Below are positions 14,481-49,735 of a stretch of DNA of 64,000 nucleotides, piece by piece (positions within the stretch are counted from its first letter, which is position 1; each line of letters starts with the position of its first letter). The notes under the pieces were generated by a model. That model searched no databases. It saw only the letters and a list, made by a program, of their open reading frames with translations, and was not told the origin of the DNA. The translations under genes were made by a program, and so were the position numbers. This stretch comes from a virus (taxonomy: Duplodnaviria > Heunggongvirae > Uroviricota > Caudoviricetes). The DNA lies in the IMG/VR virus record IMGVR_UViG_3300038393_000804, positions 19,598 to 83,597 of that record; one strand, written 5' to 3'.

Positions 14481-14491
14481 TTCCATAACCA

Positions 14492-16147: not shown

Positions 16148-16175
16148 GGAAAAGCGCGACATTATACAGTCGCGC
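16148..16175 (-). terminator. Intrinsic terminator overlapping the stop codon of the upstream gene
   Basis: GCGCGAC-TGTATAAT-GTCGCGC followed by TTTTCC; the TAA stop lies in the loop. Confidence 0.75.
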
Positions 16176-27618: not shown

Positions 27619-30600
27619 CTATTTTTTATTAGTAGTTGCATCGTAGATTCCTTTTTCAAGGTCTTCTTCTGTAACACTGTAATCTATTCCATTTGCGCCA
27701 GTCAAGTCGTTCCATTTTTGCATTAACCATTCATGCCATGTGTCATCGTCCTTGGCATTTAAGCCCAAACCAGAATAGTAGCTGTCAAGCTTACCCATAG
27801 AATCTCCAATGACCATACCCTTATGTCCGTTGATACCAGCAGTGTACTGACGACCTTGATAATGAACTGGCATCATCATGACCGCTTGGATAAGAGCTTT
27901 CTTTCTCCGCCAGTTTTCAGCAACACCTTCAGCAGCAGTTGAGAAGATAGCCGTTGCAATACCTGTAAAGATATTGTCTTCCAGTAGGAATCCTCCAACT
28001 TTCATAAAGGAACCTAAGACTTTGCTTCCGCCGCCGACGCCCTTCAGTACGTTTTCGATAACACCAGCCGCGCTCTTAACGGCTTTGTATTCACTCTTAC
28101 TCATGACTTCTCCAGTATCTTTAAGAAGTGTTCCTTCTTTGAAGGAGCCTTTCACTTTCTTCGTGATTCCGTTGCTGACGTTTCTCATTTCCTTGAGGAC
28201 ATCGTCCTTATCTGCTCCGTCTGCCATATTCGAGTACTTCTCGTAAAGGTCTTTAAACTTCTTGATGTCCGCATCATTGTCTGGCAATTTTGCCACATGC
28301 TTCTTCAATGTCTTGACGGCAGTCTCCTTGGAAAGCTTTCCGCCACCTTTGATAAGCTTAGAAATAGCTTGGCTTGGAATTACCTTTCTTAACATACGTG
28401 CTCCAAACTTCTTCGCCATTAGGATAGCTGCAAACTCAGTTGCTAGTACCCATCCCCAGTGAGTCATTGCCATCATTGCTTTATCATCATTTACTACACA
28501 AGCATCAGGCTGAATAGATGAAACAAATCCAGTCTCATGTGAGAAGTGATGAGTGACAGCCTTACAAAGGATGTTTCCTTGCATGTCATTCATGTTGTCT
28601 GTCATGAAGATGATGTCGTGAGGCTTAATCGTTGGGTCACCAAGAATAAGGATTTCACCTTTATACATATCTTTCATGTAGTCACGAAGAGCACTTGCTC
28701 CGTAGTAGATAGCCTGTTGTTCTGTTGAGAAGAAGTCCAGACCTTGTCTCTTCTTATGAACAAGCTGAGCATCAATAACAGTTGTTGTTTGCTTGTCGAA
28801 ACGAATGTCCCAGTCAGCCATGATTAATGGAGTTTGCTTACCATCGTAGTTCACGATGACGTTTGTATAGATATCCTCTGCCGAAGCCTTCAGCTTATTA
28901 CTGATAATATCCATTGTTCCATCTATGATGTGAGCTTGCATGAATGGTTTGCGGTGTTCAACGTCACGATAGCGAGTCCATCCTTTTTTCTTTTCATCCC
29001 ACTCATATCGGCTATCATACTGATAAGCCATTTCCCAGTAAGGTTTACCAAAGAATAGAGTAGAACGAAGTTCAAATGGATGAACTGCCGCGATATAATC
29101 TGGAGAACAATACGCAATCGTCTGAGCAATATCCCAAGTCGTATTATTATAGAAAGGAACAATGATGTTTGCTTCGTCACCTTCAGTTCCCCACTTCCAG
29201 ATTGGACCATCTATGTTAAATGGAATTTCTGAACCATCCTGATAGTTGTATTCACTGAATGTATTTAATCCGTTACTTGAGTAGATATTCTGTGCCGCTT
29301 CACCATAGTCATGGTTGTACCACATAATGTTACCTGGAGGCGTTGCCCCTGGAGTTCCAAAGTGCATAATACCTAGTGGATTGTCACGGAAGAATTTATC
29401 TCCTGACTTCAAGTTGATAACGTCCTTCAACCAGTTACCCTTAGATGTCATAAGCTTACAAATAAGGTCACGAGGCTCTGTACAAACCAGAATATTTGCA
29501 TTCGTATCACTTGGGTCACCTGAAATAACATTTGTCAGTTCCAGTCCATCACCCTGAGCAACAATCTGCACGACCTCTTCTGTATTCATTTCAGTAATTG
29601 TACCGTTGAATACAACTGGAAGGTCTACTACACTTGAGCCATATCCCATCCGTAAATGGATTCTTGCACCAGTTTGTAGATACATAGAGTCTAAGAGTTC
29701 CTTACGGGCATCCAGAATTTCATCGTTCGGATTTCCCCAGACAAGGTTGTCCCAGAACTTGTAATCCCACTCACTGTAAGCTGTATCCATTGCACGGCTT
29801 GTCAAGTTACTGTAGATGTTTGTCATTTCAATAATGGCAGTATCAGCAGCAATCTTACGGCTCTTATGAATGTCGATAGACTGAATGGCATTGTATCCGT
29901 ACAGGTTATCCCATAGTTTGTAGTTCGTCATCCATCGTCCTTCATCAATGATAAACATTTGGAAGGTTGGGAATGCACGAAGCAAACGATACTTCTGGTC
30001 ATAGCGAATCATGTCTGTGAATAGTCTAGGGAAGATATCCTGCGGCGACGAATTAAATAGAAGGTTGTTGGCGTCCGTCATATACTTGTTGAATTGCTTG
30101 TACATCGTATAGTTCGTTGCCCAATCAGGGTTGCCGTAGTTTCCAGCTACCACTGAATCTATTAAATCATCTGTTCCGTCAGGCATTTTGATAAGACCAG
30201 CATAAGGGTTTACCTCATAGGTATCATCATTATTCTTGCCGCCATTCACATAGTTGCCATTGCTTATCTTCTTCTGCATGTACTCTTCATAGATTTTCTT
30301 CACATCATCAGAAGTCTGCGCCTTCAACCATTTCTTCGTGTCTGCTTTGTTCTTCTTATCTTTAAGGTATCCTGCAGCCAGTAAGTCTGTAATCATATCA
30401 TCCTTGTTGCCTTTGATAAGGTTTAACTGATGAACAGTGTAGCCATTCTTCCAGCTCATGATATCTACATCTACAGTTGTTCCTGGTGATGCATACAGAT
30501 ACTCGTACTTGTTGTAATAAGATTCAAAGATAGTATAAACATAATTGAAGAACGGGCTATTTGTGTCGCCTTTGTCAGCAGCACCTGTGTCTGAGCCAAG

Positions 30601-33600
30601 AGCAATATTGCCAGTTGCATAGGCATAAATCATCCAGTCCCACGGAGCAGCATTATACGTAATGTCCTTTTGCTTCACTGCTGCATCCCATGCCTCGGCT
30701 AGGAACTTGAATCCTACTTCCATGTTATAAGCCCAGTCCCATAGAAGACGTTTCGCATCTTCTACCTTTTCTGCTTCAGATGCAAGTGGAACACCCATGA
30801 TACCAGCCGCATTGCCAGTTCCATCTATCATCGGCATACCCGTATCGAAGAATTGCTTCCATTTACTTCTTACATGGATAATTGCTTTGACGAGGTTAGC
30901 CATACGCTCTCTTGGTAGCTTGCTGCCAGTCACTTTGTAATCAGATAGGCTTAAGCTTCCTTTCTTCGTATCTGAATCTTTCTTTGTCAGATACTTTGGA
31001 TGCTTGCTTGCTACATAATCATAGTTGACAGCATACATATCATCTTGCGTAGAATAGGTAACTTTCTGCCAAGCCTTATTCGTTACATCGACATTTGTAT
31101 CATCAAAGAGCTTGCCTTTGCCTGTGAAATACTTGTCTATCAATGAATATATCTTTGTGTAGACACCCACTGTAGATGGATTCTTTTGGTCAATAAATGA
31201 ATTGTAGTCTCTGTACTGGAGGTCTAATCCCCATTTGTTGAATTCCTCTTCTGTCGGAGGAGTCTTTATGTTCTCGCGGTTGCTAACAAAGTCTTGAACT
31301 TCTTTGCTCTTGAACTTAGCCGTAGGCTGTTCATTGGCTTTCTTTTCGTCCGTTACTGCTCCGTCCCAACTGAACTTAGGGTCAATCTTAGAACTCTTTC
31401 CATCAATCTCATTCAGCAATGCCCACTGCTCGTCCGTACCATCCAATAGATTAGGAGATTGGGAGCTAGTCACCATTTCAACACCATGCATATCTCTCAT
31501 GCTCATGCTGACTTCGGTCTTTGATTTCTCACGTATCAATTCACGAACGGTAACAGGTGTAGCCATGTAGAAGTCTGGGTCTACATAGATGCCGCCAGTA
31601 CGGTTCTCATAGATACTGAATCCAGTTGTAATGTATTGCAGGTCACTATTCAACTCATCGTAAGTTGGAAGCTCAAGGTCAGGATACACTTCGAGGCGCT
31701 TCATCTTCATCTCGATGATAGCTTCATCAACAGCTGGGTTGTAGCTGCTTGCTTCACGAGTTTCTCTGCCTGGAGTTCCATTAACAGGAGAGATGCCTTC
31801 AAGAGTTTCAGTGCGCTTCTGTGTCTTGTCAAACCCACATAGAGTCATGCTGACTTGGTAGCGCCCAGGGAATCCTGGCACAGTACGATACACAAGGTTT
31901 TCTATCATACAAGTTTGAATGCCGAATAACTGCATTAAATGGTTCTTTACGCCGAAGAATCCAGACGTGATACCAGTACGATACTCTCTTGCGTAACGCT
32001 CTGTTTCGTCCACTAGCCATTTCAGTTTATTAATCGCGCCATCGTCTGCTTCAAATTCAAGCTGAACATATGGGTCTTGACCACCAAGGAATTGGAATGT
32101 AGGCCTTCCTAGTTCTTGAAGCTGAACTGTACTAAATTGGTTTTCATACATCACTTGAACAGCTGTACAAATCAGACCAGGGATGTCATAATCAATCAGA
32201 TTGAAATACGCCTCTGTTTCATTTGCAACAGCCTGTAAGTTTTTGTATTTCTCAACCTCTTTAACATACTCTTTTTCTGCTTCCATACCAGTATCAATAA
32301 TGCCTTGTAATGTACCAATCTCTATTCCAGGGACAATAAGAACGGTGAACTCTCCATCCTTTGTAGCATTATCTCGGTATTGTTTAGGGAAACGTTTGAT
32401 GTTGCTATCTTCGTACAAACGAATCTTAATAACACCATTGTCTTCCTCTGTGATGTCTGGCTTATCTGTTGTTGCCATCCAGCTGTGTGGAACAGCATAG
32501 TGAGAAACGCTTTGGATATAAGCTTCGCCTTTGTCACCATAAATAGCTGACCATGCAGGATTCTTGGTATCCTGACCCATTCCAAAATGTTTTGCTAACC
32601 ACTCTGCATCTTCTTTGACAGTTCCATTTTCAATAGCTTTCAGATAGTTTGAATACATGGAAACAACGTGTTGGGCCGCCCATGCATCGGCATACAATCG
32701 TCCAAGCTTTGTGTTGTCAGGAGAATTGCTGTTCAATGGATTCTTTGTTCCATCCTCCATCGTGCTTCCTAGTGGATTCAATATCTTATCCGCTGTAGGC
32801 ATCTGGGCTGCAGGATTCTCAAACTTAGACTTCGCCGTTGTAGGGTCATCCATATATCGCATATCACGCATTGCCTGTTTTCTGTCGATTAAATCTTGCT
32901 CATCAACAATCTGGAACTTGAACTCATTTGTTAATCCAGAGTCAGGAATAGGCTCAAGATAAGTACGATACGGATTGCGGTCTGCCATTTCTATATCGTC
33001 ACGCATAGATTGCTGATAGTACCAGCGTAGTAACGGATAGTTAATAGCTTCACCAAGGAATCCTAATTGAGGCATATAGGCTTCATGTTCAAACTCTGCC
33101 AATACTAATGTAGCAGATATAGAATGTGGGAATCCTGGGACTGTCTGAATAGACAAGTTGACAAGAGCCACGCTCTGAATACCTAATGTTTCATTAATAT
33201 ATACGTTATCAATAGGAAGGAAAGGAGCCTTTTTAAATTGAGCAATTAATGGGCGTAATCCATCCATTGAGTAAAAGCGACCTGGAAGGTCTTTATGCAT
33301 TAGCTGTTTATGTCCATTGATAGAATCAATATCATGGAAGTAGAGCTGTAAGGTTAGCGTCGTCGTAGAAGACCCAGATTTAATCATCATGGACTGCTTA
33401 CTACGAAGCGTCTTTATCTTTTGAATAGAAGACGTACTATTTACCTCAATCGCAAGTGGTGGAATAACCAGCGACACATCTCCAATGCGGACTCTATGGT
33501 CAGTTCCGTATCCGTCTTCTTTACGGTCATCATCAGGAACGATGAAATCAATTTGATTATTGTAAGACTCTGTTAGTTTTACTTCAACCGTATAGCCGTC

Positions 33601-34878
33601 TGTGATTGGTGTTGTTGGTCCATCGTTATTTGCTTTCTTATCTTCTGCTTTAAGTTCTTTGATTCTATCTCCAAGACCATAATCATCATCTGACTTACGA
33701 ATACCAGCATCTATTAACCATTGTTGCGTATCAATCCTACCTGGGTCATCATCAATGAAATGGTAGTAAGGAATAACTAGAGGAGCAGATGGAACAATTT
33801 TTGATTTTGTTGCCATCAATGTTTTACAGATGTTCTCTGCATAAACAGGTGTACCAGTGAAGAACACGTTCGGGTCTTTTTCATCTGTCTTGTAAACAGC
33901 CGCCGTCACACGTCCATATTTGTCTCGGTTAAGAATGTCATGAGTATGTCCATCTGTATCATAAATAATAGATTTAGAGTCAGCTTCTAATACGATTAAT
34001 CCGCTATTATCTCCAGATGTACCAAGCTTGCCTTTCGAAAAGTCCCACGCTTCCTTACCAATCTGGAAAGCCTGAGATGAGCTTACATTATAAGCCGCAC
34101 AATATTCGTAGTTACGTGTAACCCCTTGAGTATATCCGTGCTCAATTGTTTCAGGAGCATTGATTCCTAGGAAACGGATATTAAGGTTATCACCCTTTTT
34201 AATAGGAGGGTCATACTGATAATCTGTTCCATCTACGGTGAACATAGGAACAGCTTGAGCTACTTTCTTACCTACCGCAAGTACATGGAATCCGTCAATT
34301 GTATCACCGTCAATAACAGCTCCTAAAGCTGCTTCGCCAGTTTGTGGGTCAACATAACCATCCTCTTTTGTAGCAAGTCTACCAACGATTAACCAGTCAG
34401 ATTTATCTAGCTCTTCTTCATTTCCTGCTGTAACTCCAGTGCTTGCCCCGTTGTCTCCAGCAGTAACCTGCATCTTGAATTCACTTGCTGTAATCTCTTC
34501 GCCTTGCTCTGTGGCAATTGGAATCATATCCATTAAGCCTGTGCCAGCATTATCACTTGCATCAACAGTAGCTAGTAAGCGAAGAAGGGTAACATTTACA
34601 TCTAAATGAATTAGCTCGTCCCCATTCATTCGAGCATCAAATAGATTTGTTGTATCGTTTAAGAAATCTCTCCATGCATATTGGAATGGATAGTTATCTA
34701 CTTTGCGCTCAATGGCAGAGAGGACCCCGTCTAAACGAGGCCCCACACTTGCTCCACCATCTGTTGCGTCAATAGAGGCTCTTAACATTCTGCCGCTTGG
34801 AGCGACATAAGAGACTATCCATGGTTCACTTGTAGAACGCTTGAAGAGGGCTTGCACCCTCAGTTGTCTTGTCTCCAT
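27619..34878 (-). CDS. Giant baseplate hub fusion (2419 aa): thermonuclease (SNase) domain, tube-like domains, degenerate SLT-like domain, gp27-like hub
   Basis: VIDGDT...IRFLGINAPET...DKYGR (SNase); KAIIHVRS...AAGIMGV...YNMEVGFKFL...AYATG (SLT-like); TGARIHLRMGYG...VFNGTITE...IVAQGDG (hub). Confidence 0.75.
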   Translation of the reverse strand: METRQLRVQALFKRSTSEPWIVSYVAPSGRMLRASIDATDGGASVGPRLDGVLSAIERKVDNYPFQYAWRDFLNDTTNLFDARMNGDELIHLDVNVTLLRLLATVDASDNAGTGLMDMIPIATEQGEEITASEFKMQVTAGDNGASTGVTAGNEEELDKSDWLIVGRLATKEDGYVDPQTGEAALGAVIDGDTIDGFHVLAVGKKVAQAVPMFTVDGTDYQYDPPIKKGDNLNIRFLGINAPETIEHGYTQGVTRNYEYCAAYNVSSSQAFQIGKEAWDFSKGKLGTSGDNSGLIVLEADSKSIIYDTDGHTHDILNRDKYGRVTAAVYKTDEKDPNVFFTGTPVYAENICKTLMATKSKIVPSAPLVIPYYHFIDDDPGRIDTQQWLIDAGIRKSDDDYGLGDRIKELKAEDKKANNDGPTTPITDGYTVEVKLTESYNNQIDFIVPDDDRKEDGYGTDHRVRIGDVSLVIPPLAIEVNSTSSIQKIKTLRSKQSMMIKSGSSTTTLTLQLYFHDIDSINGHKQLMHKDLPGRFYSMDGLRPLIAQFKKAPFLPIDNVYINETLGIQSVALVNLSIQTVPGFPHSISATLVLAEFEHEAYMPQLGFLGEAINYPLLRWYYQQSMRDDIEMADRNPYRTYLEPIPDSGLTNEFKFQIVDEQDLIDRKQAMRDMRYMDDPTTAKSKFENPAAQMPTADKILNPLGSTMEDGTKNPLNSNSPDNTKLGRLYADAWAAQHVVSMYSNYLKAIENGTVKEDAEWLAKHFGMGQDTKNPAWSAIYGDKGEAYIQSVSHYAVPHSWMATTDKPDITEEDNGVIKIRLYEDSNIKRFPKQYRDNATKDGEFTVLIVPGIEIGTLQGIIDTGMEAEKEYVKEVEKYKNLQAVANETEAYFNLIDYDIPGLICTAVQVMYENQFSTVQLQELGRPTFQFLGGQDPYVQLEFEADDGAINKLKWLVDETERYAREYRTGITSGFFGVKNHLMQLFGIQTCMIENLVYRTVPGFPGRYQVSMTLCGFDKTQKRTETLEGISPVNGTPGRETREASSYNPAVDEAIIEMKMKRLEVYPDLELPTYDELNSDLQYITTGFSIYENRTGGIYVDPDFYMATPVTVRELIREKSKTEVSMSMRDMHGVEMVTSSQSPNLLDGTDEQWALLNEIDGKSSKIDPKFSWDGAVTDEKKANEQPTAKFKSKEVQDFVSNRENIKTPPTEEEFNKWGLDLQYRDYNSFIDQKNPSTVGVYTKIYSLIDKYFTGKGKLFDDTNVDVTNKAWQKVTYSTQDDMYAVNYDYVASKHPKYLTKKDSDTKKGSLSLSDYKVTGSKLPRERMANLVKAIIHVRSKWKQFFDTGMPMIDGTGNAAGIMGVPLASEAEKVEDAKRLLWDWAYNMEVGFKFLAEAWDAAVKQKDITYNAAPWDWMIYAYATGNIALGSDTGAADKGDTNSPFFNYVYTIFESYYNKYEYLYASPGTTVDVDIMSWKNGYTVHQLNLIKGNKDDMITDLLAAGYLKDKKNKADTKKWLKAQTSDDVKKIYEEYMQKKISNGNYVNGGKNNDDTYEVNPYAGLIKMPDGTDDLIDSVVAGNYGNPDWATNYTMYKQFNKYMTDANNLLFNSSPQDIFPRLFTDMIRYDQKYRLLRAFPTFQMFIIDEGRWMTNYKLWDNLYGYNAIQSIDIHKSRKIAADTAIIEMTNIYSNLTSRAMDTAYSEWDYKFWDNLVWGNPNDEILDARKELLDSMYLQTGARIHLRMGYGSSVVDLPVVFNGTITEMNTEEVVQIVAQGDGLELTNVISGDPSDTNANILVCTEPRDLICKLMTSKGNWLKDVINLKSGDKFFRDNPLGIMHFGTPGATPPGNIMWYNHDYGEAAQNIYSSNGLNTFSEYNYQDGSEIPFNIDGPIWKWGTEGDEANIIVPFYNNTTWDIAQTIAYCSPDYIAAVHPFELRSTLFFGKPYWEMAYQYDSRYEWDEKKKGWTRYRDVEHRKPFMQAHIIDGTMDIISNKLKASAEDIYTNVIVNYDGKQTPLIMADWDIRFDKQTTTVIDAQLVHKKRQGLDFFSTEQQAIYYGASALRDYMKDMYKGEILILGDPTIKPHDIIFMTDNMNDMQGNILCKAVTHHFSHETGFVSSIQPDACVVNDDKAMMAMTHWGWVLATEFAAILMAKKFGARMLRKVIPSQAISKLIKGGGKLSKETAVKTLKKHVAKLPDNDADIKKFKDLYEKYSNMADGADKDDVLKEMRNVSNGITKKVKGSFKEGTLLKDTGEVMSKSEYKAVKSAAGVIENVLKGVGGGSKVLGSFMKVGGFLLEDNIFTGIATAIFSTAAEGVAENWRRKKALIQAVMMMPVHYQGRQYTAGINGHKGMVIGDSMGKLDSYYSGLGLNAKDDDTWHEWLMQKWNDLTGANGIDYSVTEEDLEKGIYDATTNKK

Positions 34879-34889
34879 CCTTTAACCTC

Positions 34890-40800: not shown

Positions 40801-42461
40801 CTTAGTCCAGCTTTTTCGCCTTCCCTCCAGATATCCAATGCCCCGTACATACGGTTAGCAAGCTGAATGCCGCCGCCAGATTCCATCGAAAACATCTTAT
40901 TCCAACGACGCATAGCACGGTCTTGATTTTGTGCTTCATGTGCATTAGCCATAGAACCCCATTTAGCATCTGTGTATTGTAGGTGTTGGTGAATAGCATT
41001 CTGCAATTCTGCTTGAGTGCTACGGAAGACAGTGTGGTGCAGGTCATCATCTTCATTATAAAGGTGAATACCGAACATCTTCTTGCCATCAATATTAATT
41101 CCGTCAAAGAAGTTTTTAATGGTGTATGTTGTATTACGATAAATAGGGTTTGGCTTCATATCGTAAGCAGAGTGGAATTTTCCATCCTTCATACGGAAGA
41201 TGCCGTCAAACTCCCCAGCATTGCTGCTGTTCATACCAGCCACGCCAAATAAGTGGTCTCCTACTTTCAGAGTTTGATTATCAAAGTATCCGTAAGCACT
41301 TCCAGCTTTATTGCCAGTACGCAACACATGAGCTGTATGCGGGTCTTTAATTAATGAATTTAATTGAGCGATGGTTGTATTAACGTCAGACAAGGCATGG
41401 TGAGACTGACCATCCTGAATACCCAAAATATCCTTCATTCGCTCTAGAGTTGTTCTGTCACCAAATCTTTCATAAGGGTCACGATATAAAGTACGGACAG
41501 CATGTAAACCATCTATTTGATTAAGAGCCATTTGGTTCTTTAATGTCTGTAAAGCTTTTCCTGCTGGACTGTTCGGATTGTGCTTGCCAACTCCATTGTT
41601 TAGGTAGTCAAGCATCATTGGCTGGTCAAAGCTATATACGTTATATCCAGCAAACTTAGTATTCATCATCCCTTTCATGAACGAGTTCATTTCTAGGATG
41701 GCATCTTCTGGAGTTGTCCCCCATTGCATTAGGTTTTCCAAACCACGTCTCATATTCGCAATCGTGCTGGAGTCTGACAAAGCCACTCCATTCATTGGGC
41801 GAAGATGACGAGATTGCTCGTTTACGCTAACAATACGTCTACCATCCTTATATTCTTCCTTAAACATTCTACTAGTGTCGCCAGCGTAGAGTGTTAAGTC
41901 GGACAAAGTACGGCGCATATCTTCTGTCAGACCCGACCATTTCTTGCTAGCAAGGTCATTAATAGCAGCATCTAGTCTTTTATATACTTCTTCATTAGGA
42001 CGTAAAAGCATAGACAAACTTTTACTTTGTTTTTCTAGTTTTCCGTTAATCATTTTTACATGTTGGAATCCGATTTCTGTAGGGGTATAAAAGTCAGCGT
42101 GAGCAGCTGTCTTTCTATTAAATGGAGTTGTACCTAAAATCTCTGTATCGTAAACTACTAAGTCTGCTCCATCTTTCATGTTCATTAGTTCCTGCATACC
42201 TTGAATGGCCTGTTGACCATATGTATGGGAAGCGTAGCCAGGTGTTACCCCGCGCCACACTCCCATATCATTAGCCATAACAGTATTTCCTGCATTCATT
42301 CGGTTGAGGACAGCAGCAGCCTTACTAGCACCGACGGAATCTCCCACGTCTTGCTTAGGAGCCGACTTACCAGGATAGCGAGAATCAAAAGCCGTATAAG
42401 AACCATCTGCATCTGCGCCATATCCGCCGTACTTTCTTACGATATGTTTATTGTCTGCCAT
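34890..42461 (-). CDS. Single-chain two-barrel (beta+beta'-like) RNA polymerase fused to an N-terminal DEDDh exonuclease; probable virion protein (2523 aa)
   Basis: Ordered motifs LLAFGMYNPMGR, NMRAAYM, YDGMFLMSEE, KLGPGEELT, KYITEAGHRAT and GLVRYGRKEV (beta-like), then KMSNAGRFRI, NRYPTIKQSTVQA and LKADYDGD (beta'-like). Exonuclease motifs YDTE, GYNVYSFD and HHALSD. Confidence 0.85.
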   Translation of the reverse strand: MADNKHIVRKYGGYGADADGSYTAFDSRYPGKSAPKQDVGDSVGASKAAAVLNRMNAGNTVMANDMGVWRGVTPGYASHTYGQQAIQGMQELMNMKDGADLVVYDTEILGTTPFNRKTAAHADFYTPTEIGFQHVKMINGKLEKQSKSLSMLLRPNEEVYKRLDAAINDLASKKWSGLTEDMRRTLSDLTLYAGDTSRMFKEEYKDGRRIVSVNEQSRHLRPMNGVALSDSSTIANMRRGLENLMQWGTTPEDAILEMNSFMKGMMNTKFAGYNVYSFDQPMMLDYLNNGVGKHNPNSPAGKALQTLKNQMALNQIDGLHAVRTLYRDPYERFGDRTTLERMKDILGIQDGQSHHALSDVNTTIAQLNSLIKDPHTAHVLRTGNKAGSAYGYFDNQTLKVGDHLFGVAGMNSSNAGEFDGIFRMKDGKFHSAYDMKPNPIYRNTTYTIKNFFDGINIDGKKMFGIHLYNEDDDLHHTVFRSTQAELQNAIHQHLQYTDAKWGSMANAHEAQNQDRAMRRWNKMFSMESGGGIQLANRMYGALDIWREGEKAGLSVDAIKKNIMNASEFNTDEFVRDFETMKGRLEGEETWIRGFMNRIQQAMPVTKPDDFSGYRAQSMVFSEFGKNLDSQFGINTRERSLNGGQALELTVAGDTRLLNLTNADAVRGALYGQLYKYHSDRPDLATVRTRYKQLLIQLKSYNALDAKKFEAMYKSLDNVRSDVSLDNMLTDISNAVMRAKENATLQGALSGVTVEDPTGLNKTRAAGMSEAGFKAHFENIFTKSMNDAQPFVKKWHDGPIELFGDGALDLVNTHDNAIKMLMQRNGLDKAHGIDLRNLKSSKSSLAELAQAFHSQDMHVQFRYDGKRKGLQMVLADKGVSEALLNGSMNDLMKSNQVAVIDLPRLMKDGSLTLGSQNRVARFKARRQGSGGYELVTGFDEIVNTLKYNAKTVRTMLNDAKNMAKKEGKDNGMLLVHDYLNRRAKKAMQNLSMNNRYSAMTGHDNPWETKSLAANWVRSGLVDISDTAEDWYTSFYNETKMKDPNRIDLWRMKTPEEVRELAAKNGELFVDSMGVNARRVFQRQSDKFWNEKTGMNVGMHSVKDVHVSNYLRANLDARELLAFGMYNPMGRENIMKTVNYDSLDRGRVKASLKAQGYSDAEIERMTTRGVVSEGALGVMEEYQTSDKLSYLNMRAAYMNDEQLQQRAADLRGEYLRKARQAPVGSEERAMYMKYARSVKNTERISTYDGMFLMSEESAQAFNTTREKRIKLGPGEELTQEIKTLMMSKLDPALWSEKEKLLNFDTMSFGPDDWNGIKGQPKLLTNLGSTVDTRNGFKNNGGKITISQVVRDDILEHDADGNVVYDGLTPKTMKEVVKQGQVYDKWYANNVWIKGWDAENRELILEEQVHTMNSTKYITEAGHRATATLLPGQVIKDLAGSASTQAIMPQFETSKGMHGTEVSRMVALAVDEAKRQIDNGGIVTAGKIAKEDALQTINQIMQESFGIGSSLSYIKDGQIVLNKHLGSEQAKMAYTAQNMDKFASKMNEYLGTDMFSGVKLDNASGVVHHGNLGIGRQNVYDWENGVGLVDENSAGLVRYGRKEVDMITARANSILGRGSAVTGWLQDHIKTSAEAQSKDVRRIGQALVKSVVYADEVTPDKGDVIIRTTATGSWHDDDVDGREHGRTRADGVREISMHALQDIPDVTAKDTVRTAQMYAQTIIDFGRTQGKFEDGVSFAQAFKNNGGTALLELPSSEAITRKYLRLVDFGDITKGDTAVIPVTRELQTIQQQLWRNIQQYNKMNMNGKLSEGEANEMRERLEGRINDLADEYENKAARMLSNSRDGGIQKTFGAAKMSNAGRFRIQGVNPFANYEDVGNGMMAQSRTAKYQEGSLYVSRDRFKEMITDSKGYANETTINAAKAMGIYEEGLHGEELVNKVLANVNEKGLYGFVNRYPTIKQSTVQAMRIQIDDSIDPTDRTARLTVGTAARLKADYDGDFLSSVMAHYSTDEKRAMAIHGELKTLNARESELAHIEGSRILADLQDDMFNAAKNMNITVSELSKRVNEAEAVKQQMAQGVEGAELSKEQKSLLMRFGNEGIKSKYLNPEDILETREARLGKEFVGLIDNARDRIVNLSTATLDTLEAHGKIKADTASRFKTAGADFRNAIEEFTAAFSQDSISAKKFSVEAEIERQFSLDKDLDFHNDDHMATARQRAMEAVDVRYNKLQDMIEALMNPTDANKEKFIKHNEEIQVFKDEKKMVNALDMIQKVAVWNNRTGGFFNNSLKLGQSLGQEQKRVAGVMLGMENHIAPTQVVGSLMELADDDTKQVMQEGQDRWVRSLLTTHGRIEGGGDQSLIESLGKGFDPSDHQLSGATVAEEGSQKLSSMIGKFAPNLMHGGGGFGKGALAFGAMWAASALIRSGPTPEGLQAQTQNPAPAAPPMDTNPTARITQNNGEYVNIKVNAKNVKNMSEQQIASIVHQELGAMTNTKLDTNINVNDNTQNIDPNWLQGVVAKAIGGGYAF

Positions 42462-42485
42462 GTTACCACCCTCTCCCCTAGGGGA

Positions 42486-45400
42486 TTAACCATTGCTAGG
42501 GCGAGCACCGCCAGCAGAGATAAGTCCACCTAGGTTATTGTTAATTTCTTGTATGATGTCATTGCTTCTATCTTTAAGGATATCCATAGCCAATCCGATT
42601 CGGTTTTCCCCTTGACCGTGAGTAGTTTCCATTGTCACGCTTACGTCATGGAGTCCTGCTCCTGCAAGAACTCTCTCGATTCGTCCTACGTCGATGGCAG
42701 CACTAATGCTATTCATTGGAAGAACATTGGCATGCGATTGCTCAGCACGCTTCTCGTCATCTCCCCAGTCGCCAAACTCTGTAAGCTCAAGACCTTCGTT
42801 CTTAATCATTTTGACTTTGTAGTTCTCCAAACTTACGTCGGCTTGCCATCCAGACCAGCCAGCGCCAGGTAGGTAATGAGTCTTGAAGTAAGAGTCAACG
42901 CTCTCCTTCTTATCAACCTTGAGTCCCCACTTTGCTTGGAAGAATCGGCGCTCATTCTTAGGAACAAGTCGAAGGATTTCTTCACGCTCAGATGGAGAAG
43001 CCTTCATGAATTCTTGGAAGAACTCTCTATCTTTGTTTGGTAATGCACGGAATATCTTTGTCATATCCCCGTTTTCATCAGCACCATACAAAGTAGATTC
43101 ATATTCCGATTTATAACGCAGAGCAAGCATTGACATTGGGCCAAGCTTACGAAGAGGTCTGTCAGCATCAATCTTGTCAAGCTCTCCTTGAATGCTGTCC
43201 AGATGCTCATCTGCTGCTTCTCTATCACCATAACCTAATTTCTTGCTCAAGGAAAGCCATTTTTTCGTGGATTCTAGGACTTTTCTCTTGCCCTTATTCT
43301 TCTGTCCACGCTCTTTATTATCCTGCATCAAGTCTTCAACATCGACGCCTTCACGGACAATAGCTTCATGTCTTGCCTTCTCATATAGGCCATGATACTT
43401 CATGTAGCGAAGCATATCGAAATACTCGTTGATGTCGCGTTCCTTACGGCGGCGCTCAGGAATCCATGTTTCATCTGGGTCTGAAGATGTTAGCTTCTTG
43501 AAGTGCTCAGAGAACACACGAATCGTAGAAGCAGCTCCACCAATGATAGCACCCACATGAGTACCCCATACCCTTGCTCCAGCTTTCGTGAACAACCATC
43601 CAATACCAGCACCTTGAGCTGCCCCAATAATAGGATTATTTGAAGCCATCTGGTCAAGCATTGGTTGAATCCAGCCGCTCCATGGCGCTGTCCAAGGTCT
43701 CCATGCTTTGCCGTAAATCTCTTGACGCTTGTACATTTCAAGAGGAGAACGTACTTGCAAGAACTTGTCTGCAATGGTTCCGACAATTGGAAGGTTAGGA
43801 AGCAGGTCATGAGTTGTCCATTCCCACATCTTACCGACAGTTATCATATCGTTGCTGTATAAGGCATTGGTAGAAGTAGCAGTTCCATCATTATGAGTAG
43901 AGGCTACATAGCGTCCACCAAGACCCATAAATCCGCCTTCCTTACGGTTAGCCAGTTTAAAGTTTAAGTTTCCTTCTACTGGATTATAGACAACTGCACG
44001 AATGGTTTGGTACGTATCATCACGAACTTGATTTAGCGGGTCAGCATCCGTTGCGATACGAAGGGTCGCGCCCTCATGCACATATTGCTGTAACCATTCT
44101 TGTGATGCTTGGTCATCAGCCTTGATGTCCACGCCAGCCAGACGGATTGGATTGAATGGATGTTCCTTCGTCATGAAGGTAGTCGCATCTATCATCCGAG
44201 TAACGTGAACCGTCTGGTAATCTACATCTGCTTTGCCTTTTGTAAACTGTCTATCATAGAAACGGTACTTCGCTTTCTTCGCTGCCGTTTGCTCACGAAT
44301 CTCTGCGTATTCTTTTTTCTCTGCGTCATCAAGCATTCCAGCGCCATTCATCTTAGAGACGATAGCCTTATAGAACTTGAATTGCTGAGAGTATGGAGCT
44401 ACATCTGATAAGATACGGTAACGGTCAAATGCGCCGTATTCACCGAATGCATCTGGGTGTAACTTATATAATGTTTCATAAGCCGCACCAGGGAGTCTCA
44501 TTTCTCCGTGTGGAACCTTCACATATGGGTCACCATGTTGGAAGTCAACGAAGTAATCCGCCCCAGGCATCCAGTAAGGCATTCTATTTCGGATTGGATT
44601 CCAGTAGTTCTTGTTCGGGTCACGAGGCAAGTAACGACGGAAAATCTCCGATAGTCCTCCACCAAGACCGCCAAGCTCATTGTCCCACCAAGCTCTTTGG
44701 TAGCTGGTCATTCGGTTGGATGTATCAAGAACCATTCCTCGTCCAGATTCATCCCAGCCAATTGCACTCTTCGATAAGAAACCGTAGATACCACCAATCT
44801 CAGTAGCACTATATACAGAGTCACGGAAGTTGCCGCCTATGCTGTACATATCGCCAATGTCATGAAGGTTCTCGATAATGTCTGGGTCACGAAGGTCTTC
44901 AAGAGATGTAACGGAGCGAATATTCTTACCAGTAACACCAAGAGCTGGTCCACCGATATCGGCCATAGCAGCGTTGACAAGGGCTATCTGTTGTCTTGAA
45001 GCACCAGTGGCACCTCTGCTACCCCTTCCGCCTCCAATGCCGTATGATACACCTCCAGCGCCTCCTCCTGAGCCTGAGCCACCGCCTGCACCCATAGGGC
45101 TTCCATCAACGGCGTAATCTGCCTCAGTAACCTCACTATCCTGAAGAAGTCCTGTTCCACCAGCAGGCATACCTTGCAAGTATCCACCCATTGCCATTTG
45201 GTCATATTGGGCTGCAATATTCGCATTCAATTCTTCTAGGTATTCACGGTGAGCTTTCCGCAGCCTGTCATCTTTCAGACGAGGCTTGAGGATTCTTCCG
45301 ACTGTATTATCAACAGCAGAACCAATGAGTGGAATCTGTTGCAGTTCACTGAATCCGCCTGTCTCTGGATAAGGACGGTCTTCCCTATGCTTATTCTCCC

Positions 45401-48400
45401 AATGATATGGGTCTAATAGGAAATGATTAAGCGGCGCAAGTGGATGAGTTAAAGTTGGGAACCAAGCATTTGCATAGTACTCATCTTCACTTCCATATAG
45501 CGTGTCGGTGAACTTGTAATCTGACCGCATCTTGCGATACCAGTTTGGTTCGTATCGGTCAATACGTCCACCAGTGTAAGGAGTTCCAGAACCAATACTC
45601 CAGAAACGTCCTTTACGGACTGGGTCTTCACCATGCTCCCAGTAGTATTGCTCGTCTTCACCAGAACGATTGTCTCCGAAGACACCGAAAGTAGCCATGT
45701 TGAATGCTCTGAAGAATGGTGTTTCTGCAAGCTGGTCAGCTCCAGTGAATACGCGAGACCATTGACGGCCTATATCATTCAGTCCAGCAAACTCTTTCAA
45801 CCACTGGACATCTGTACGCATGTTAACGTATGTGCTAGCAGCTGTATCACTTGGTTGGTCGCCAAGCACACCATCAGCCCATTGAAGCTGTTGATAAGCT
45901 ACATAAGGCATTACAATGCGTCGTAAGAATTGATTTGCTAAGATGCTTTGGAAGGAGCCACGATTCTTCTGTGACAATCCTAGCCCTACATAAGAAACCG
46001 CATTATCTAGACGTTCAGCATAGTAGTAAGGGAATAAGGTAGCAGTAGTAACATCACCAATATTCTTACGTCCAGCAAAGAACTGTCCGAATACTCCTTT
46101 AGCAGAACTGAAGACAGCGTCTAGCGCATCTCCACCTTCTGATATGGTCTTATTATAGTTCTCAAGCGCCCAGCGATAACCCTTTGCCTTGTTCATAGAT
46201 AAGTTGTTTACAAATCCAAAGTACTGAGGCGGCTCTTGTCCTGGTCCCATTGCAAGGAGAGGGTTCATATCCTTCATCGCCGCTTGCGTTGTGTGGGACA
46301 GTGCATCGCCAGGGTCTAGTACACGGTCAGTAAAGTCAGCAAGCGCAGTTGCTTTGTCCTCTGGCCTTCCCTTGTAGACATCATCCCACCATTGACGCAT
46401 TGTACTTAGGGATTCAAGGTCACGAACTTCTTTCAGAGAATCCTTGTGAAGAACACCTTCATCAATACCCTTCTGAACAAGAGAGGCAACAGTTATCTTC
46501 TGACCGTCTCCTGTCGCATGTTCCAATTGACGAAGAGCATGCATGTGGATAAGACGCTTAACGTCATCCACTTTATCAATCATTTGAGTGTCCTGCATGT
46601 CGAGTGCAGACATCCACTCAGGAACATACATAGCATTATTCGGGCGGACACGTTTATTTCTCAAGAATGCCTGTCTATCATTTGCATACTTTAACCATGT
46701 ATCATTGATGAATTTATCTAGGCCTTCCATCGTGCCGTCTGCTTTAGTAGAAATCTTCGCAATGTCAGAGTTTCTTGTCAGCATAGCCTGATTGATTTTG
46801 CCTAGAGCGTCCATCGTCTCTTCAGGTGAATAAAGCTTTGTTATATCTACGCCAATATTGCCATAAGCATTTTTAACATACTGACCAATGTAGTTGACGG
46901 TATCATCAGACAATGCAGATGACTTTGCCTCAAGCTGAGAAAACATGAGCTTGTAAACATCTTCTGGATGAAGCTCAGAACCACCTGTTTGATACTTCCA
47001 GTTATACAAGCTACTGTGAAGATTGCGTCCCCACTCAGGATTGTCAAACTTCGTGAAGGCACTAATAATACGCTTATATGAAGGTTCTGTTTCCTGTTTG
47101 CCCACATCGAATAGCTTTTGAAGAGAGCCTAGGAATCCTTCTTTATAGGTATACTCCTGTGTATGTAAGTTTGCCATACCAGCAAGAGCACGCGGCACCA
47201 TACCGAATCGCCCAGAAGCCTGATAAACATCTTGTTTAACTAGGTCACCAGTTGTTAAATCATACAAATTACCATTGGATGTCTGCATGTAGTTACGTGC
47301 TAGAACACCTACGGCTGCATCCTGGTTATGGGCATGTGGATGGGCATACTCTTTAACAGCTCCATGCAACGCAGGGTCAATTGTACCCATGTTACGGAAA
47401 GCAATCTTCGGAGCTTCCCTCATGCCTTCCCATGTAGTGAAGTGCAATAAGTCTAATGGGTTAAAACGAAGGAATGGAATCTGAACGCTTCTTCTGAAGT
47501 TATCAGCGAAGTTAACAGCTCCATGAGCCATCCATCTGTTATCAAGGAATTCCCCACGGTTGTTTATCCAAACATGGCGGTCTACAGCCAAGTCGCGGAA
47601 GCGCGGGTCCATCTCCATCATCTTATTGACTTTACTTGAAAGACGCGTATCTATATGCGGCTGACCGAATCTCTTCGGCTTACTTCTTAAGCGGAAATCA
47701 AACAGGTTTCCATTCTTGTGCATTGCAATGTCTTCAACGGTAGCAAGGCGATATCCATTGTTCGCCATAACTTTTTCATTAAAGGCATTACGTTTCTTCC
47801 TGTTCTGCGCAATGAAGTCATTCCACATATTATGTTTGTTCTTGCTTAAGGCATCACGATAGGCTTTCTTCCTGCCGCCTTCGTTGAAACCAGCTGAATG
47901 TCTGGTCTTATATCTATCTAGTGTTTCATGGACACTATCGACAAAGTCTTCACGACTCATCTTATTGGCATGAAGTTTGTCCGCAAGAGCCTTGTTATTC
48001 TCAAGAACATGGTCAACGAATGTACTTACGCTTTGATGGGATAGGTTATTCCCATGCATCCATGATGAGCCATAACCTGTTAAGTGACTTCCAAAGTCCT
48101 TCTCAAAGTTAAGCCATGAATGTTTCTGTCCCAGCTCTTGTTCAACGTAATTGATACGTTGGTTTTCAAGCACCTTATTGTGAAGCTGTGCCATCCTTGT
48201 GCGGAGTTCTTCTACCTGCGTTTCAAACTCTAGGTCGTGTCCTCCGAACGGAACGCCAGCCATCCGTCCCCTAGCCTCAATAGAATGCTGAAGGGATTGC
48301 TGGAATCTATCTTCGAATCTACTAGGGTTTCCCATATGAGAGAAGATGCTTCGACCATCCATCGCGTGATTCAATGCTTTACCGAATGCACCTATATCTT

Positions 48401-48632
48401 CTATTGTATCCTTGAACTTAGCATTACGGGCTAAAGCACTAATCCCCATGCTGCCAATTGTTCCAGTGAATTCTCCAACAGAACGTAATCCTGACCCTAT
48501 TTGACTACGGTATCGCCAGCCAAGAGCACCTGCTCCAATAACACCAGCGACTCCAACAGCCATTCCAAGACCTGAGTGGTGCTGCGGGCCTTGTTGTTCA
48601 TCATATTGTCTTATTTGTCTTTCGTCAGCCAC
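42486..48632 (-). CDS. Tape-measure-like or ejected protein (2048 aa) with hydrophobic segments, a Gly-rich linker and a degenerate SNase-like domain
   Basis: First gene after the tail chaperones (canonical TMP slot). N-terminal GLGMAVGVAGVIGAGALGW, later IIGAAQGAGIGWLF...VGAIIGGAAS; VTRMIDATTF...IRLAGVD. Confidence 0.6.
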   Translation of the reverse strand: MADERQIRQYDEQQGPQHHSGLGMAVGVAGVIGAGALGWRYRSQIGSGLRSVGEFTGTIGSMGISALARNAKFKDTIEDIGAFGKALNHAMDGRSIFSHMGNPSRFEDRFQQSLQHSIEARGRMAGVPFGGHDLEFETQVEELRTRMAQLHNKVLENQRINYVEQELGQKHSWLNFEKDFGSHLTGYGSSWMHGNNLSHQSVSTFVDHVLENNKALADKLHANKMSREDFVDSVHETLDRYKTRHSAGFNEGGRKKAYRDALSKNKHNMWNDFIAQNRKKRNAFNEKVMANNGYRLATVEDIAMHKNGNLFDFRLRSKPKRFGQPHIDTRLSSKVNKMMEMDPRFRDLAVDRHVWINNRGEFLDNRWMAHGAVNFADNFRRSVQIPFLRFNPLDLLHFTTWEGMREAPKIAFRNMGTIDPALHGAVKEYAHPHAHNQDAAVGVLARNYMQTSNGNLYDLTTGDLVKQDVYQASGRFGMVPRALAGMANLHTQEYTYKEGFLGSLQKLFDVGKQETEPSYKRIISAFTKFDNPEWGRNLHSSLYNWKYQTGGSELHPEDVYKLMFSQLEAKSSALSDDTVNYIGQYVKNAYGNIGVDITKLYSPEETMDALGKINQAMLTRNSDIAKISTKADGTMEGLDKFINDTWLKYANDRQAFLRNKRVRPNNAMYVPEWMSALDMQDTQMIDKVDDVKRLIHMHALRQLEHATGDGQKITVASLVQKGIDEGVLHKDSLKEVRDLESLSTMRQWWDDVYKGRPEDKATALADFTDRVLDPGDALSHTTQAAMKDMNPLLAMGPGQEPPQYFGFVNNLSMNKAKGYRWALENYNKTISEGGDALDAVFSSAKGVFGQFFAGRKNIGDVTTATLFPYYYAERLDNAVSYVGLGLSQKNRGSFQSILANQFLRRIVMPYVAYQQLQWADGVLGDQPSDTAASTYVNMRTDVQWLKEFAGLNDIGRQWSRVFTGADQLAETPFFRAFNMATFGVFGDNRSGEDEQYYWEHGEDPVRKGRFWSIGSGTPYTGGRIDRYEPNWYRKMRSDYKFTDTLYGSEDEYYANAWFPTLTHPLAPLNHFLLDPYHWENKHREDRPYPETGGFSELQQIPLIGSAVDNTVGRILKPRLKDDRLRKAHREYLEELNANIAAQYDQMAMGGYLQGMPAGGTGLLQDSEVTEADYAVDGSPMGAGGGSGSGGGAGGVSYGIGGGRGSRGATGASRQQIALVNAAMADIGGPALGVTGKNIRSVTSLEDLRDPDIIENLHDIGDMYSIGGNFRDSVYSATEIGGIYGFLSKSAIGWDESGRGMVLDTSNRMTSYQRAWWDNELGGLGGGLSEIFRRYLPRDPNKNYWNPIRNRMPYWMPGADYFVDFQHGDPYVKVPHGEMRLPGAAYETLYKLHPDAFGEYGAFDRYRILSDVAPYSQQFKFYKAIVSKMNGAGMLDDAEKKEYAEIREQTAAKKAKYRFYDRQFTKGKADVDYQTVHVTRMIDATTFMTKEHPFNPIRLAGVDIKADDQASQEWLQQYVHEGATLRIATDADPLNQVRDDTYQTIRAVVYNPVEGNLNFKLANRKEGGFMGLGGRYVASTHNDGTATSTNALYSNDMITVGKMWEWTTHDLLPNLPIVGTIADKFLQVRSPLEMYKRQEIYGKAWRPWTAPWSGWIQPMLDQMASNNPIIGAAQGAGIGWLFTKAGARVWGTHVGAIIGGAASTIRVFSEHFKKLTSSDPDETWIPERRRKERDINEYFDMLRYMKYHGLYEKARHEAIVREGVDVEDLMQDNKERGQKNKGKRKVLESTKKWLSLSKKLGYGDREAADEHLDSIQGELDKIDADRPLRKLGPMSMLALRYKSEYESTLYGADENGDMTKIFRALPNKDREFFQEFMKASPSEREEILRLVPKNERRFFQAKWGLKVDKKESVDSYFKTHYLPGAGWSGWQADVSLENYKVKMIKNEGLELTEFGDWGDDEKRAEQSHANVLPMNSISAAIDVGRIERVLAGAGLHDVSVTMETTHGQGENRIGLAMDILKDRSNDIIQEINNNLGGLISAGGARPSNG

Positions 48633-48646: not shown

Positions 48647-49195
48647 TTATCCCATTGGAGGAAACCCTGGAGCTTGGTTCTGTTGTTCCTCCCTTTGAAT
48701 AGTTACTCCTCTTAAGTTCTCTAATGTCCATTTGGCTCTTGAGTAATACCACAACATCTTCTCAAACTGCCAATTCTCTATCTCTTCAAGAGAGATGTCT
48801 GGGAATGCTTCCTTGATAATGCATGAAATCTGATTATCGAATGTCTGCATATCCATTTCTAGTTTTAGTATTTTTGCGTCAAGCTCTTTTATTGTGAGCG
48901 TGAATCCAGATTCTTTCAGAATATTCTCTGTCAATGTCTCTGGAATACCAGCGTACATTTCTTCGCCCCAGTCATCTATCTCTGGGAATAGAACGCAACA
49001 GCGGCAAACATATTCAGCACGGTCAAAGTCATCTTCATACCATTCCATTGCCTTCTTATATTCTGCCCTTGTCATTCCACGCCAGATGAATGCCATGTCC
49101 TCAATCTCCGTAGAGTAGACATTGCCATAGAACTCTTCTTTCCAATGCTCTATCATCAACTTAAACTGTTCATCCATTAAGACTTCTTCGTTCAT
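48647..49195 (-). CDS. Tail assembly chaperone paralog with a C-terminal extension (gpGT-like)
   Basis: FIWRGMTRAEYKKAM...VCRCCVLFP...GIPETLTENILKESGF aligns with the upstream gene; extra C-terminal FPDISLEEIENWQFEKMLWYY. Confidence 0.7.
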   Translation of the reverse strand: MNEEVLMDEQFKLMIEHWKEEFYGNVYSTEIEDMAFIWRGMTRAEYKKAMEWYEDDFDRAEYVCRCCVLFPEIDDWGEEMYAGIPETLTENILKESGFTLTIKELDAKILKLEMDMQTFDNQISCIIKEAFPDISLEEIENWQFEKMLWYYSRAKWTLENLRGVTIQREEQQNQAPGFPPMG

Positions 49196-49213: not shown

Positions 49214-49243
49214 AAAAAAGGAGAGAGCAGTTCGCCCCCTCCC
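49214..49243 (-). terminator. Intrinsic terminator between the two chaperone genes
   Basis: GGAGGGGGC-(GAACT)-GCTCTCTCC stem with G:U pairs, followed by TTTTTT. Confidence 0.75.
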
Positions 49244-49258: not shown

Positions 49259-49735
49259 TTAGAGTTTCATAGCTCCAGTCTTAGCTTGGAAGCCTGACTT
49301 CTCCATGATTAATTCAGCAAGTAGAGTTGGGATACCAGCTTTACCAGCAGTCATTGCCATGAAGTTATATCCTTGTGGATAAAGGATACATGCTTCGCAG
49401 ATACGCTCTTCTTTATAGAAAGAATCCGCATTTTGTACCTTCATTACTTGCTTGTATTCTTTACGAGTAATCGGTCTCCATAAGAAAACTTCTTCCTCGA
49501 ATTCTGTTAAATAAACTTCGTCTTTGAAACGAGATTTCCACTCTTCAACTTGCGCAAGAGCAGGGCCACCTGGGAATAAAAGCTCTTCTCCGTTTGGTCC
49601 AAGCAATTCCTGTGGAATAGAAGTTTCTGGAGCCTCTGGAGCAGCAGGTGCTTCTGGTGCTGGCACTGAGCTTTCTACTTCTTGTTCTTCCATTGCTTCT
49701 ACTACTTCTTCTTTAACAGTTTTCTTTGTAGCCAT
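49259..49735 (-). CDS. Tail assembly chaperone (gpG-like, 158 aa)
   Basis: Between the tube genes and the TMP-like gene; FLWRPITRKEYKQVM...ICEACILYP...GIPTLLAELIMEKSGF. Confidence 0.75.
   Translation of the reverse strand: MATKKTVKEEVVEAMEEQEVESSVPAPEAPAAPEAPETSIPQELLGPNGEELLFPGGPALAQVEEWKSRFKDEVYLTEFEEEVFLWRPITRKEYKQVMKVQNADSFYKEERICEACILYPQGYNFMAMTAGKAGIPTLLAELIMEKSGFQAKTGAMKL

Follow-up and report, generated by a model that had tools for sequence, protein, structure and literature searches.

A giant protein encoded in the tail operon of a metagenomic phage, designated P0002, was predicted to join a proofreading-type DEDDh exonuclease to a single-chain beta/beta'-type RNA polymerase (RNAP), a fusion that is new here and has Thermus phage P23-45 as its closest precedent. 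This protein of ~280 kDa would, in the reading we favour with somewhat better than even confidence, travel in the tail and enter the cell with the DNA as an early RNAP. The stretch analysed (the window, 64,000 nucleotides [nt]) covered positions 19,598 to 83,597 of IMG/VR virus record IMGVR_UViG_3300038393_000804, a viral record of 194 kb estimated to be 86% complete. By tblastn and record annotation, the locus belongs to a metagenomic relative of Bacillus phage 0305phi8-36. P0002 was the middle product of three adjacent giant open reading frames (ORFs), all on the minus strand and 6990 amino acids (aa) in sum:

42486..48632, minus: P0001, giant protein 1, gp145-like (2048 aa, GTG start)
34890..42461, minus: P0002, giant protein 2, exonuclease plus single-chain beta/beta' RNAP plus conserved C-terminal module, as predicted (2523 aa, ATG start)
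27619..34878, minus: P0003, giant protein 3, assigned as baseplate hub (2419 aa, ATG start)

The intergenic gaps were 24 nt (P0001/P0002) and 11 nt (P0002/P0003), and each contained a Shine-Dalgarno site (GGAGAGGGTGG and GGAGG, respectively) 5' of the ATG. No convincing terminator was found between the giant genes, the sole strong one nearby being located at 49219-49243. Coordinates and scan agreed in all these respects with a first-pass annotation made from the sequence alone. Taken as a whole, the three genes are probably best explained as a module for the tail lumen and baseplate hub in a jumbo myophage of the 0305phi8-36 kind. Searches of Pfam, NCBIfam and PDB with whole P0001, P0002 and P0003 returned nothing significant, and the assignments below were made at the level of domains and families.

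Exonuclease and RNA polymerase domains of P0002

The following regions were delimited in P0002:

41304..42191, minus: predicted DnaQ-fold DEDDh 3'-5' exonuclease domain, residues 91-386 (motifs, profile and model)
39210..41303, minus: confidently folded alpha/beta region of no assigned fold, residues 387-1084 (predicted local distance difference test [pLDDT] mostly 75-95)
37683..39209, minus: predicted RNAP beta-like module, residues 1085-1593 (fold match to E. coli beta)
35682..37682, minus: predicted RNAP beta'-like module, residues 1594-2260 (NRYPT at 1951-1955; DYDGD at 1992-1996, window 36474-36488)
34893..35564, minus: conserved C-terminal module, residues 2300-2523 (Gly/Ala hydrophobic helix, invariant SGPTPEG, Pro/Ala linker and small beta-alpha-beta domain)

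The RNAP region was recognised from invariant motifs and from structural modelling. In an alignment of 27 P0002-family sequences reaching down to 28% identity, R1952, P1954, D1992, D1994, G1995 and D1996 were invariant, as were K1413, G1419 and R1421 of the beta-like module; the counterparts of DYDGD were DHDGD in Bacillus phage WH1 and DFDGD in the Cytobacillus protein. Eight residues have been listed as universal to two-barrel RNAPs, among them R446/P448 of Rpb1 ('NRxPS/T') and K979, K987 and D837 of Rpb2 (PMC2919709), and the five on the beta' side were present in P0002. The AlphaFold model of residues 1085-2260 had a pLDDT of 76 and a predicted template modelling score (pTM) of 0.69, and its beta-like module aligned to residues 513-1262 of E. 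coli beta with Z 17.1 and a root-mean-square deviation (rmsd) of 3.5 over ~315 residues. The best 50 PDB matches returned by Foldseek for this model were all beta' or beta chains of multisubunit RNAPs: the top ones were the beta' chains of the AR9 and phiKZ non-virion RNAPs and cellular beta'/Rpb1, and Pol I A135 and archaeal B subunits were also included. The matches in BFVD were viral RNAPs. The beta'-like module had weak matches to Pfam PF00623 and phrog_2987, and a profile of the RNAP region found nothing among PDB sequences. On model and motifs together, residues 1085-2260 were firmly assigned as a fused beta/beta'-type two-barrel RNAP, predicted to be active.

The exonuclease domain was identified along the same lines. 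D105, E107, D279, H354 and D359, which cover the ExoI DxE, ExoII D and ExoIII Hx4D motifs, were invariant in 25 N-terminal sequences of the family, and the family profile matched Exonuclease I (4rg8) at 8e-4 with all three motifs aligned. The AlphaFold model of the N-terminal part had a pLDDT of 82; its exonuclease domain matched ExoI with Z 14.4 and Pol III epsilon with Z 13.7 (170/176 residues, rmsd 2.7), and further structural matches were ERI1, TREX1 and RNase T. Residues 91-386 were therefore firmly modelled as a DnaQ-fold DEDDh exonuclease with predicted catalytic activity. The first-pass annotation had read an exonuclease plus RNAP in the middle protein, and the conserved motifs, the profile match and two confident AlphaFold models bore this out. 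Structure searches covering residues 387-1084 were dominated by the exonuclease domain. Foldseek matches of the N-terminal model to Hsp70/DnaK were rejected as spurious (template modelling score at most 0.2; gone in VIA re-alignment).

Proofreading DNA polymerases usually combine a polymerase with a fused DnaQ-type exonuclease, and archaeal PolD is a two-barrel polymerase that works with an exonuclease. The two-barrel module and the DEDDh exonuclease might accordingly act on DNA, as a primase-like or DNA-synthesising/repair enzyme similar to PolD, and the exonuclease fold was equally near to RNases and to Pol III epsilon, TREX1 and ExoI. We regard this as very improbable: the top structural matches were all DNA-dependent RNAPs and none was PolD, and the pair NRxPT plus DxDGD is an RNAP beta' signature (PMC2919709).

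A word search yielded 26 full-length homologues of P0002, and an exhaustive hidden Markov model search of 1.84 billion representatives yielded 98 clusters at 50% identity. Nearly all members had 2200-2600 aa and the same domain layout. Within the record, no other RNAP-type Asp motif was found in the other ORFs of at least 400 aa. PF05183 (YonO-like RNAP) had no match in the record, in Bacillus phage KLEB27-3 or in WH1; 0305phi8-36 encoded a separate YonO-like RNAP, and the Cytobacillus replicon (see below) encoded a YonO-like RNAP together with an RNAP-bearing protein of the P0002 type. Mutual exclusion of the two kinds of RNAP was thus rejected as a rule, since that replicon carried both. A protein-level search for YonO relatives was too insensitive to count.

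Other giant proteins resembled the RNAP model. The whole model was matched by BFVD entry A0A8S5SD80_1, a 'minor tail protein' of an uncultured siphovirus (~1090 columns, E 2.4e-19, 12% identity), and giant proteins of Microcystis phages and of Acinetobacter phage ME3 also matched; pieces of uncultured crAss-like phage proteins were weak BFVD matches only. These BFVD matches hint that further tail-associated RNAPs or RNAP fusions are more widespread and have gone unrecognised.

Synteny and the two kinds of slot protein

The triad was syntenic, 3' of the chaperone genes, in all five relatives examined, and the synteny envisaged by the first-pass annotation held with the same gene order throughout:

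0305phi8-36: gp145, gp146 and gp147 of 1930, 2537 and 1903 aa
WH1: 2025, 2515 and 2320 aa
KLEB27-3: first gene in three pieces, then 2434 and 2326 aa
Cytobacillus oceanisediminis 240-kb replicon: 2144, 2416 and 2418 aa
Moorella phage: triad present, middle gene broken by an IS21-type element

The Cytobacillus sequence (CP065512.1, 240,207 bp) was a separate replicon of a sequenced isolate with an entire 0305phi8-36-like tail module plus the YonO-like RNAP, and it has the appearance of an episomal jumbo phage. In the Moorella phage (OR602862.1; L009:15865-23221), the IS21-type element, composed of an rve transposase and an IstB ATPase, lay inside the middle giant gene and left remnants of 1309 aa and 313 aa.

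Judged by sequence comparison, the middle slot is filled in some phages by a protein with the enzyme domains and in others by one without them, and the two kinds hardly differ in length: the RNAP type has 2416-2523 aa (window, WH1, KLEB27-3 and Cytobacillus), and RNAP-less gp146 of 0305phi8-36 has 2537 aa. A DxDxD motif was absent from gp146 and from a 98.5% identical metagenomic copy of it, and no similarity of either to the exonuclease or RNAP regions was detected. The C-terminal module was among the most invariant parts of the P0002 family and was partly found in slot proteins of the other kind: the last ~60 residues of the RNAP-less Moorella middle protein, whose body was gp146-like, matched the RNAP-type C-terminal profile at E 7e-10, and the match of the module to gp146 was marginal (E 0.013). 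A kinship between the C-terminal modules of P0001 and P0002 was tried and rejected, none being detectable (hhalign E 0.1, 10 columns). A complex prediction for the hub domain of P0003 and the C-terminal module of P0002 scored 0.00, which gives no verdict.

The near-equal length of unrelated slot proteins bears on a different role for P0002, namely that it is primarily the tail tape measure, with the enzyme domains as passengers on a chain stored extended in the lumen, so that ruler and payload are one molecule. Lengths of ~2200-2600 aa across the 98 clusters would also suit a ruler, the RNAP of P23-45 is part of a 5002-aa tape measure (PMC10770324), and gp146 was assigned as the tape measure by Hardies et al. 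(PMC2147016). Conserved domain architecture alone, however, would also fix the length; it is the P0001 gene that immediately follows the chaperones, where a tape measure is usually encoded; and no coiled-coil was predicted in residues 1-2260 of P0002. We give this role perhaps one chance in four. As to the length ruler itself, position favours P0001, and the equal length of the slot proteins together with the earlier assignment favours P0002. In KLEB27-3, the P0001 orthologue was annotated as three genes, gp031-gp033 (L001:7883-15036; 1340, 211 and 677 aa), two of which were labelled structural; if this annotation is real, P0001 tolerates splitting, which argues against a simple ruler role for it.

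The two functions could also be combined. P0002 would then be both ruler and cargo, being kept extended or unfolded inside the contractile tail, helping to set its length, and being shot into the cell to refold as the phage's only RNAP, with its slot serving as an exchangeable cassette. The cassette part of this idea was drawn from 0305phi8-36, which fills the slot with an unrelated protein of equal length and has a YonO-type polymerase elsewhere. The combination as a whole strikes us as rather unlikely.

Proposed delivery of the polymerase with the phage DNA

Evidence that slot proteins are virion components came from relatives. According to GenBank notes, gp145 and gp146 of 0305phi8-36 were virion proteins by mass spectrometry; the P0002 orthologue KLEB27-3 gp034 (43% identity, NRYPT and DYDGD present) was annotated as 'structural protein', and WH1 gp095 as 'virion structural protein'. 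The first-pass annotation had placed all three giant proteins in the virion, and this part of it was supported, for the first two slots and in relatives only, by the mass spectrometry notes and the KLEB27-3 label.

In the reading favoured here, P0002 would be made late, along with the tail genes, and built into the tail interior or the baseplate via its C-terminal module. Sheath contraction would then expel it ahead of or along with the DNA, and it would transcribe the first-entering genes independently of the host polymerase, as described for the tape-measure-fused RNAP of P23-45. What the analysis shows is gene order, domain folds, conserved catalytic residues and synteny; that P0002 is located in the virions of this phage, is ejected, refolds, is active and transcribes early genes from specific promoters, and that the exonuclease has a role, is what we infer.

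Alternatively, P0002 might be a non-virion polymerase that is encoded in the late tail operon and acts inside the cell that makes it, e.g., in transcribing late genes. The virion support for this phage is indirect, P0002 was mostly globular in prediction and had none of the long coiled-coil typical of tape measures, and, with no other RNAP candidate in the record, all phage-specific transcription might fall to it. On the other hand, P0002 lay between chaperones and hub in each relative without exception, its C-terminal module was partly common to the RNAP-less Moorella slot protein, and the RNAP-less occupant gp146 was a virion protein by mass spectrometry, though its module similarity was marginal. 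The KLEB27-3 label pointed the same way, and a polymerase made only late cannot start an infection unless it is carried in. A purely intracellular role is accordingly held to be improbable, at about one chance in five.

Several points nevertheless weigh against delivery of P0002 as an early RNAP: (i) residues 1-2260 were predicted to be compactly folded, and a folded protein of ~280 kDa exceeds the tail tube, so that storage and ejection would need unfolding; (ii) no source paper was found for the 'structural' labels of KLEB27-3 and WH1; (iii) the slot protein of 0305phi8-36 was unrelated and RNAP-less, and the polymerase is thus not essential to tail architecture; (iv) the record was only 86% complete, so that a second RNAP could escape notice; and (v) K1413/R1421, eight residues apart within the beta-aligned segment, formed only a tentative beta-side basic pair.

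Among known systems, P23-45 gp96 (Chaban et al. 2024, PMC10770324) was the most similar. Like P0002, gp96 was a giant tail-operon protein with a single-chain two-barrel RNAP, a DxDGD motif and a hydrophobic/membrane segment, and in both lineages there were close relatives devoid of an RNAP part. The two differed in several respects: P23-45 was a siphophage of a Gram-negative-type thermophile, while the present locus belonged to a contractile-tailed jumbo lineage of Firmicutes; the RNAP was N-terminal in the 5002 aa of gp96, together with a metallopeptidase, while in P0002 it occupied the C-terminal half of 2523 aa behind the DEDDh exonuclease; no sequence similarity between the two was detected; and no second (non-virion) RNAP, which in the P23-45 type would be transcribed by the virion enzyme, was found in the present, 86% complete record. 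The RNAP of P23-45 has been proposed to stay at the tape-measure pore and to transcribe pre-early genes as the DNA enters, and similar RNAP fusions have been noted in crAss-like and N4-like phages (PMC10770324). The coupling of DNA entry to transcription by a tail-borne polymerase, as put forward in the first-pass annotation, is the same model as that proposed for P23-45 (PMC10770324); the first-pass interpretation as a whole was partly supported.

Further systems had features in common with P0002. The virion RNAP gp66 of crAss-like phage phi14:2 (Drobysheva et al. 2021, cited in PMC10770324) resembled P0002 as a single-chain two-barrel RNAP in a delivered protein of >2000 aa among tail/cargo genes; phi14:2 was a podophage with an RNAP nearer to the QDE-1/YonO type, while the modules of P0002 aligned best to canonical beta and beta'. 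The triad of 0305phi8-36 (Thomas et al. 2007; Hardies et al. 2007, PMC2147016) shared the same place, homologous gp145 and gp147, and a gp146 length near that of P0002, but its hub had peptidoglycan hydrolase domains and no SNase (staphylococcal nuclease) module, and its RNAP was separate and YonO-like. The virion RNAPs of phiKZ and AR9 (PMC7598289) likewise were beta/beta'-derived enzymes packaged by jumbo phages for early transcription, but they had four or five subunits, were packaged in the head and were paired with a non-virion set, in contrast to the one fused chain encoded in the tail operon here. NCgl1702 of Corynebacterium glutamicum (Iyer et al. 2003; PMC2919709) was similar by its published description as a beta::beta' fusion protein, with ~2200 aa, fused beta-like and beta'-like cores, nothing else recognisable by similarity and a suspected phage origin. 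For 0305phi8-36, the jumbo-phage survey of Iyer et al. gave only the YonO-like enzyme (PMC7824862). A literature search found no description of an exonuclease-RNAP family in tail operons, and no paper on KLEB27-3, WH1 or Edson.

With a polymerase that arrives together with the genome, a phage can begin its programme independently of the host enzyme. To our knowledge, very few routes for genome-delivered polymerases exist (N4, phiKZ-like, crAss-like and P23-45), and a tail-carried RNAP delivered with the DNA has so far been shown only for a Thermus phage and for crAss-like phages. The present locus would add to them a contractile-tailed jumbo lineage of Firmicutes comprising ~100 sequence clusters. 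Since KLEB27-3 and WH1 are cultured Bacillus phages, the system is experimentally tractable, and RNAP-less 0305phi8-36, as a sister, offers a natural comparison of phages with and without the enzyme. The locus also sharpens the physical question of how a very large folded enzyme passes through the tail tube.

P0001, the hub P0003 and the surrounding tail genes

P0001 shared 36% identity with 0305phi8-36 gp145 across ~1260 aa and had homologues in at least 183 clusters, some of them with inteins. Three regions were marked in it:

48519..48575, minus: N-terminal hydrophobic segment, residues 20-38 (Kyte-Doolittle scan; counterpart in gp145)
43863..44225, minus: putative degenerate SNase-like (OB-fold) domain, residues ~1470-1590 (via homologue P0142)
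43503..43655, minus: Gly/Ala-rich, glycine-zipper-like hydrophobic segment, residues ~1660-1710 (weak Pfam glycine-zipper matches; gp145 counterparts score hydrophobic)

The SNase-like domain of P0001 itself had no direct match in Pfam, Atlas or PDB, its profile recovered no SNase from PDB, and a profile-profile comparison with the hub SNase-like domain was not significant (E 0.31). The homologue P0142, however, cleared the Pfam SNase cut-off (8.6e-6, 26.6 bits versus 21) at the position aligned to this domain, and the degenerate SNase-like domain reported for the first protein by the first-pass annotation was thereby corroborated. The equivalents of SNase D21, E43 and R87 were replaced family-wide (31 aligned sequences), which makes the domain an OB-fold remnant, not an enzyme. 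P0001 is probably a membrane-active or structural partner and a candidate tail-lumen protein. A search of viral contigs for relatives found three loci only. Several gp145-like members (e.g., P0076, P0102, P0104, P0107, P0130 and P0138) carried intein/LAGLIDADG domains (PF14528, PF14890 and PF13403), and this giant gene is therefore a recurrent intein target.

P0003 matched the 0305phi8-36 hub gp147 with 30% identity (E 5e-55) and phrog_20474 at 1e-210. Two regions were marked in it:

28429..30081, minus: Mu gp44 / P2 gpD / T4 gp27-type hub domain, residues 1600-2150 (Atlas feature search, gp44-like/GpP families 0.97)
33844..34326, minus: putative SNase/thermonuclease-like module, residues ~185-345 (motifs, sub-threshold Pfam and Atlas)

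Residues 1600-2150 were the block best conserved with gp147, which was aligned to T4 gp27 by Hardies et al. (PMC2147016). On this similarity and on its place upstream of the gpV-like and Baseplate_J genes, P0003 is identified as the baseplate hub.

The N-terminal SNase-like region of the hub was found in only three other proteins. DGDT, IRF, GINAPE and DKYGR were conserved in these four sequences, and the equivalents of SNase D21, R35, E43 and R87 were kept in them, with D40 replaced by Asn and T41 by Ala, when mapped onto the SNase sequence. The module scored 0.069 (14 bits) against Pfam SNase PF00565, and its best relative 0.0078, both below the 21-bit cut-off. In Atlas, 95/100 of the nearest named clusters were SNase (score 0.91), and JGI named two of the hub relatives 'endonuclease YncB (thermonuclease family)'. 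Of the near-intact hub SNase claimed by the first-pass annotation, the motif set was thus present and the Pfam cut-off was missed. In this sub-lineage, the module occupied the place where the 0305phi8-36 hub has a transglycosylase. Earlier work on hubs of the 0305phi8-36 type described exchangeable domains at the termini of a conserved core (PMC2147016), and a variable add-on fits this description.

These results bear on the proposal that the three giant proteins form one injected payload of three nuclease/polymerase folds. With the P0001 domain dead family-wide and the hub module in three other proteins only, the three-enzyme payload was an over-reading, and one delivered polymerase remains of it. 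The contrast once drawn with the hydrolase-bearing slot of other phages also fell away: the peptidoglycan hydrolases of the locus were not missing but encoded in the next gene, 3' of the hub, instead of as hub domains. The neighbouring genes were as follows:

49259..49735, minus: tail assembly chaperone paralogue 1 (158 aa; position of 0305phi8-36 gp143 and of the WH1 'tail chaperonin' genes)
48647..49195, minus: tail assembly chaperone paralogue 2 (182 aa; position of 0305phi8-36 gp144, PMC2147016)
26475..27605, minus: tail lysozyme plus NlpC/P60 peptidase (376 aa; Pfam Phage_lysozyme2 1.8e-32, NLPC_P60 5.4e-18)
26123..26482, minus: gpV-like spike OB protein (119 aa; weak Pfam Phage_base_V 0.0065; position of 0305phi8-36 gp148, 'P2 gpV-like')

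Upstream of the giant genes lay the sheath and tube genes and the two chaperone paralogues, the first of which had no match in a Pfam search; a Baseplate_J gene also lay downstream of the hub, near the lysozyme and gpV-like genes. The terminator-like hairpin at 49219-49243 (minus strand; 11 pairs plus a T run) was located between both chaperone genes and could set the ratio of the two paralogues, replacing the usual frameshift. Past the baseplate, window positions 1-19437 (minus strand) held an open-ended ORF of at least 2259 aa, followed by ORFs of 1522, 950 and 1091 aa, and the full record also contained ORFs of 4497, 2970 and 2447 aa; these very large ORFs presumably encode fibre proteins.

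Scanning k-mers for a promoter motif specific to the phage yielded nothing but a clustered palindrome, CTATATAG, located outside the window. It was present in 12 copies in the record, against a chance expectation of ~5 per strand across the whole record, with 10 copies within 1.3 kb of mostly non-coding DNA. The copies lay at record positions 43576-44881 and 58690-58774, in the opposite-strand arm, and the cluster might mark an origin, a set of iterons or grouped promoters.

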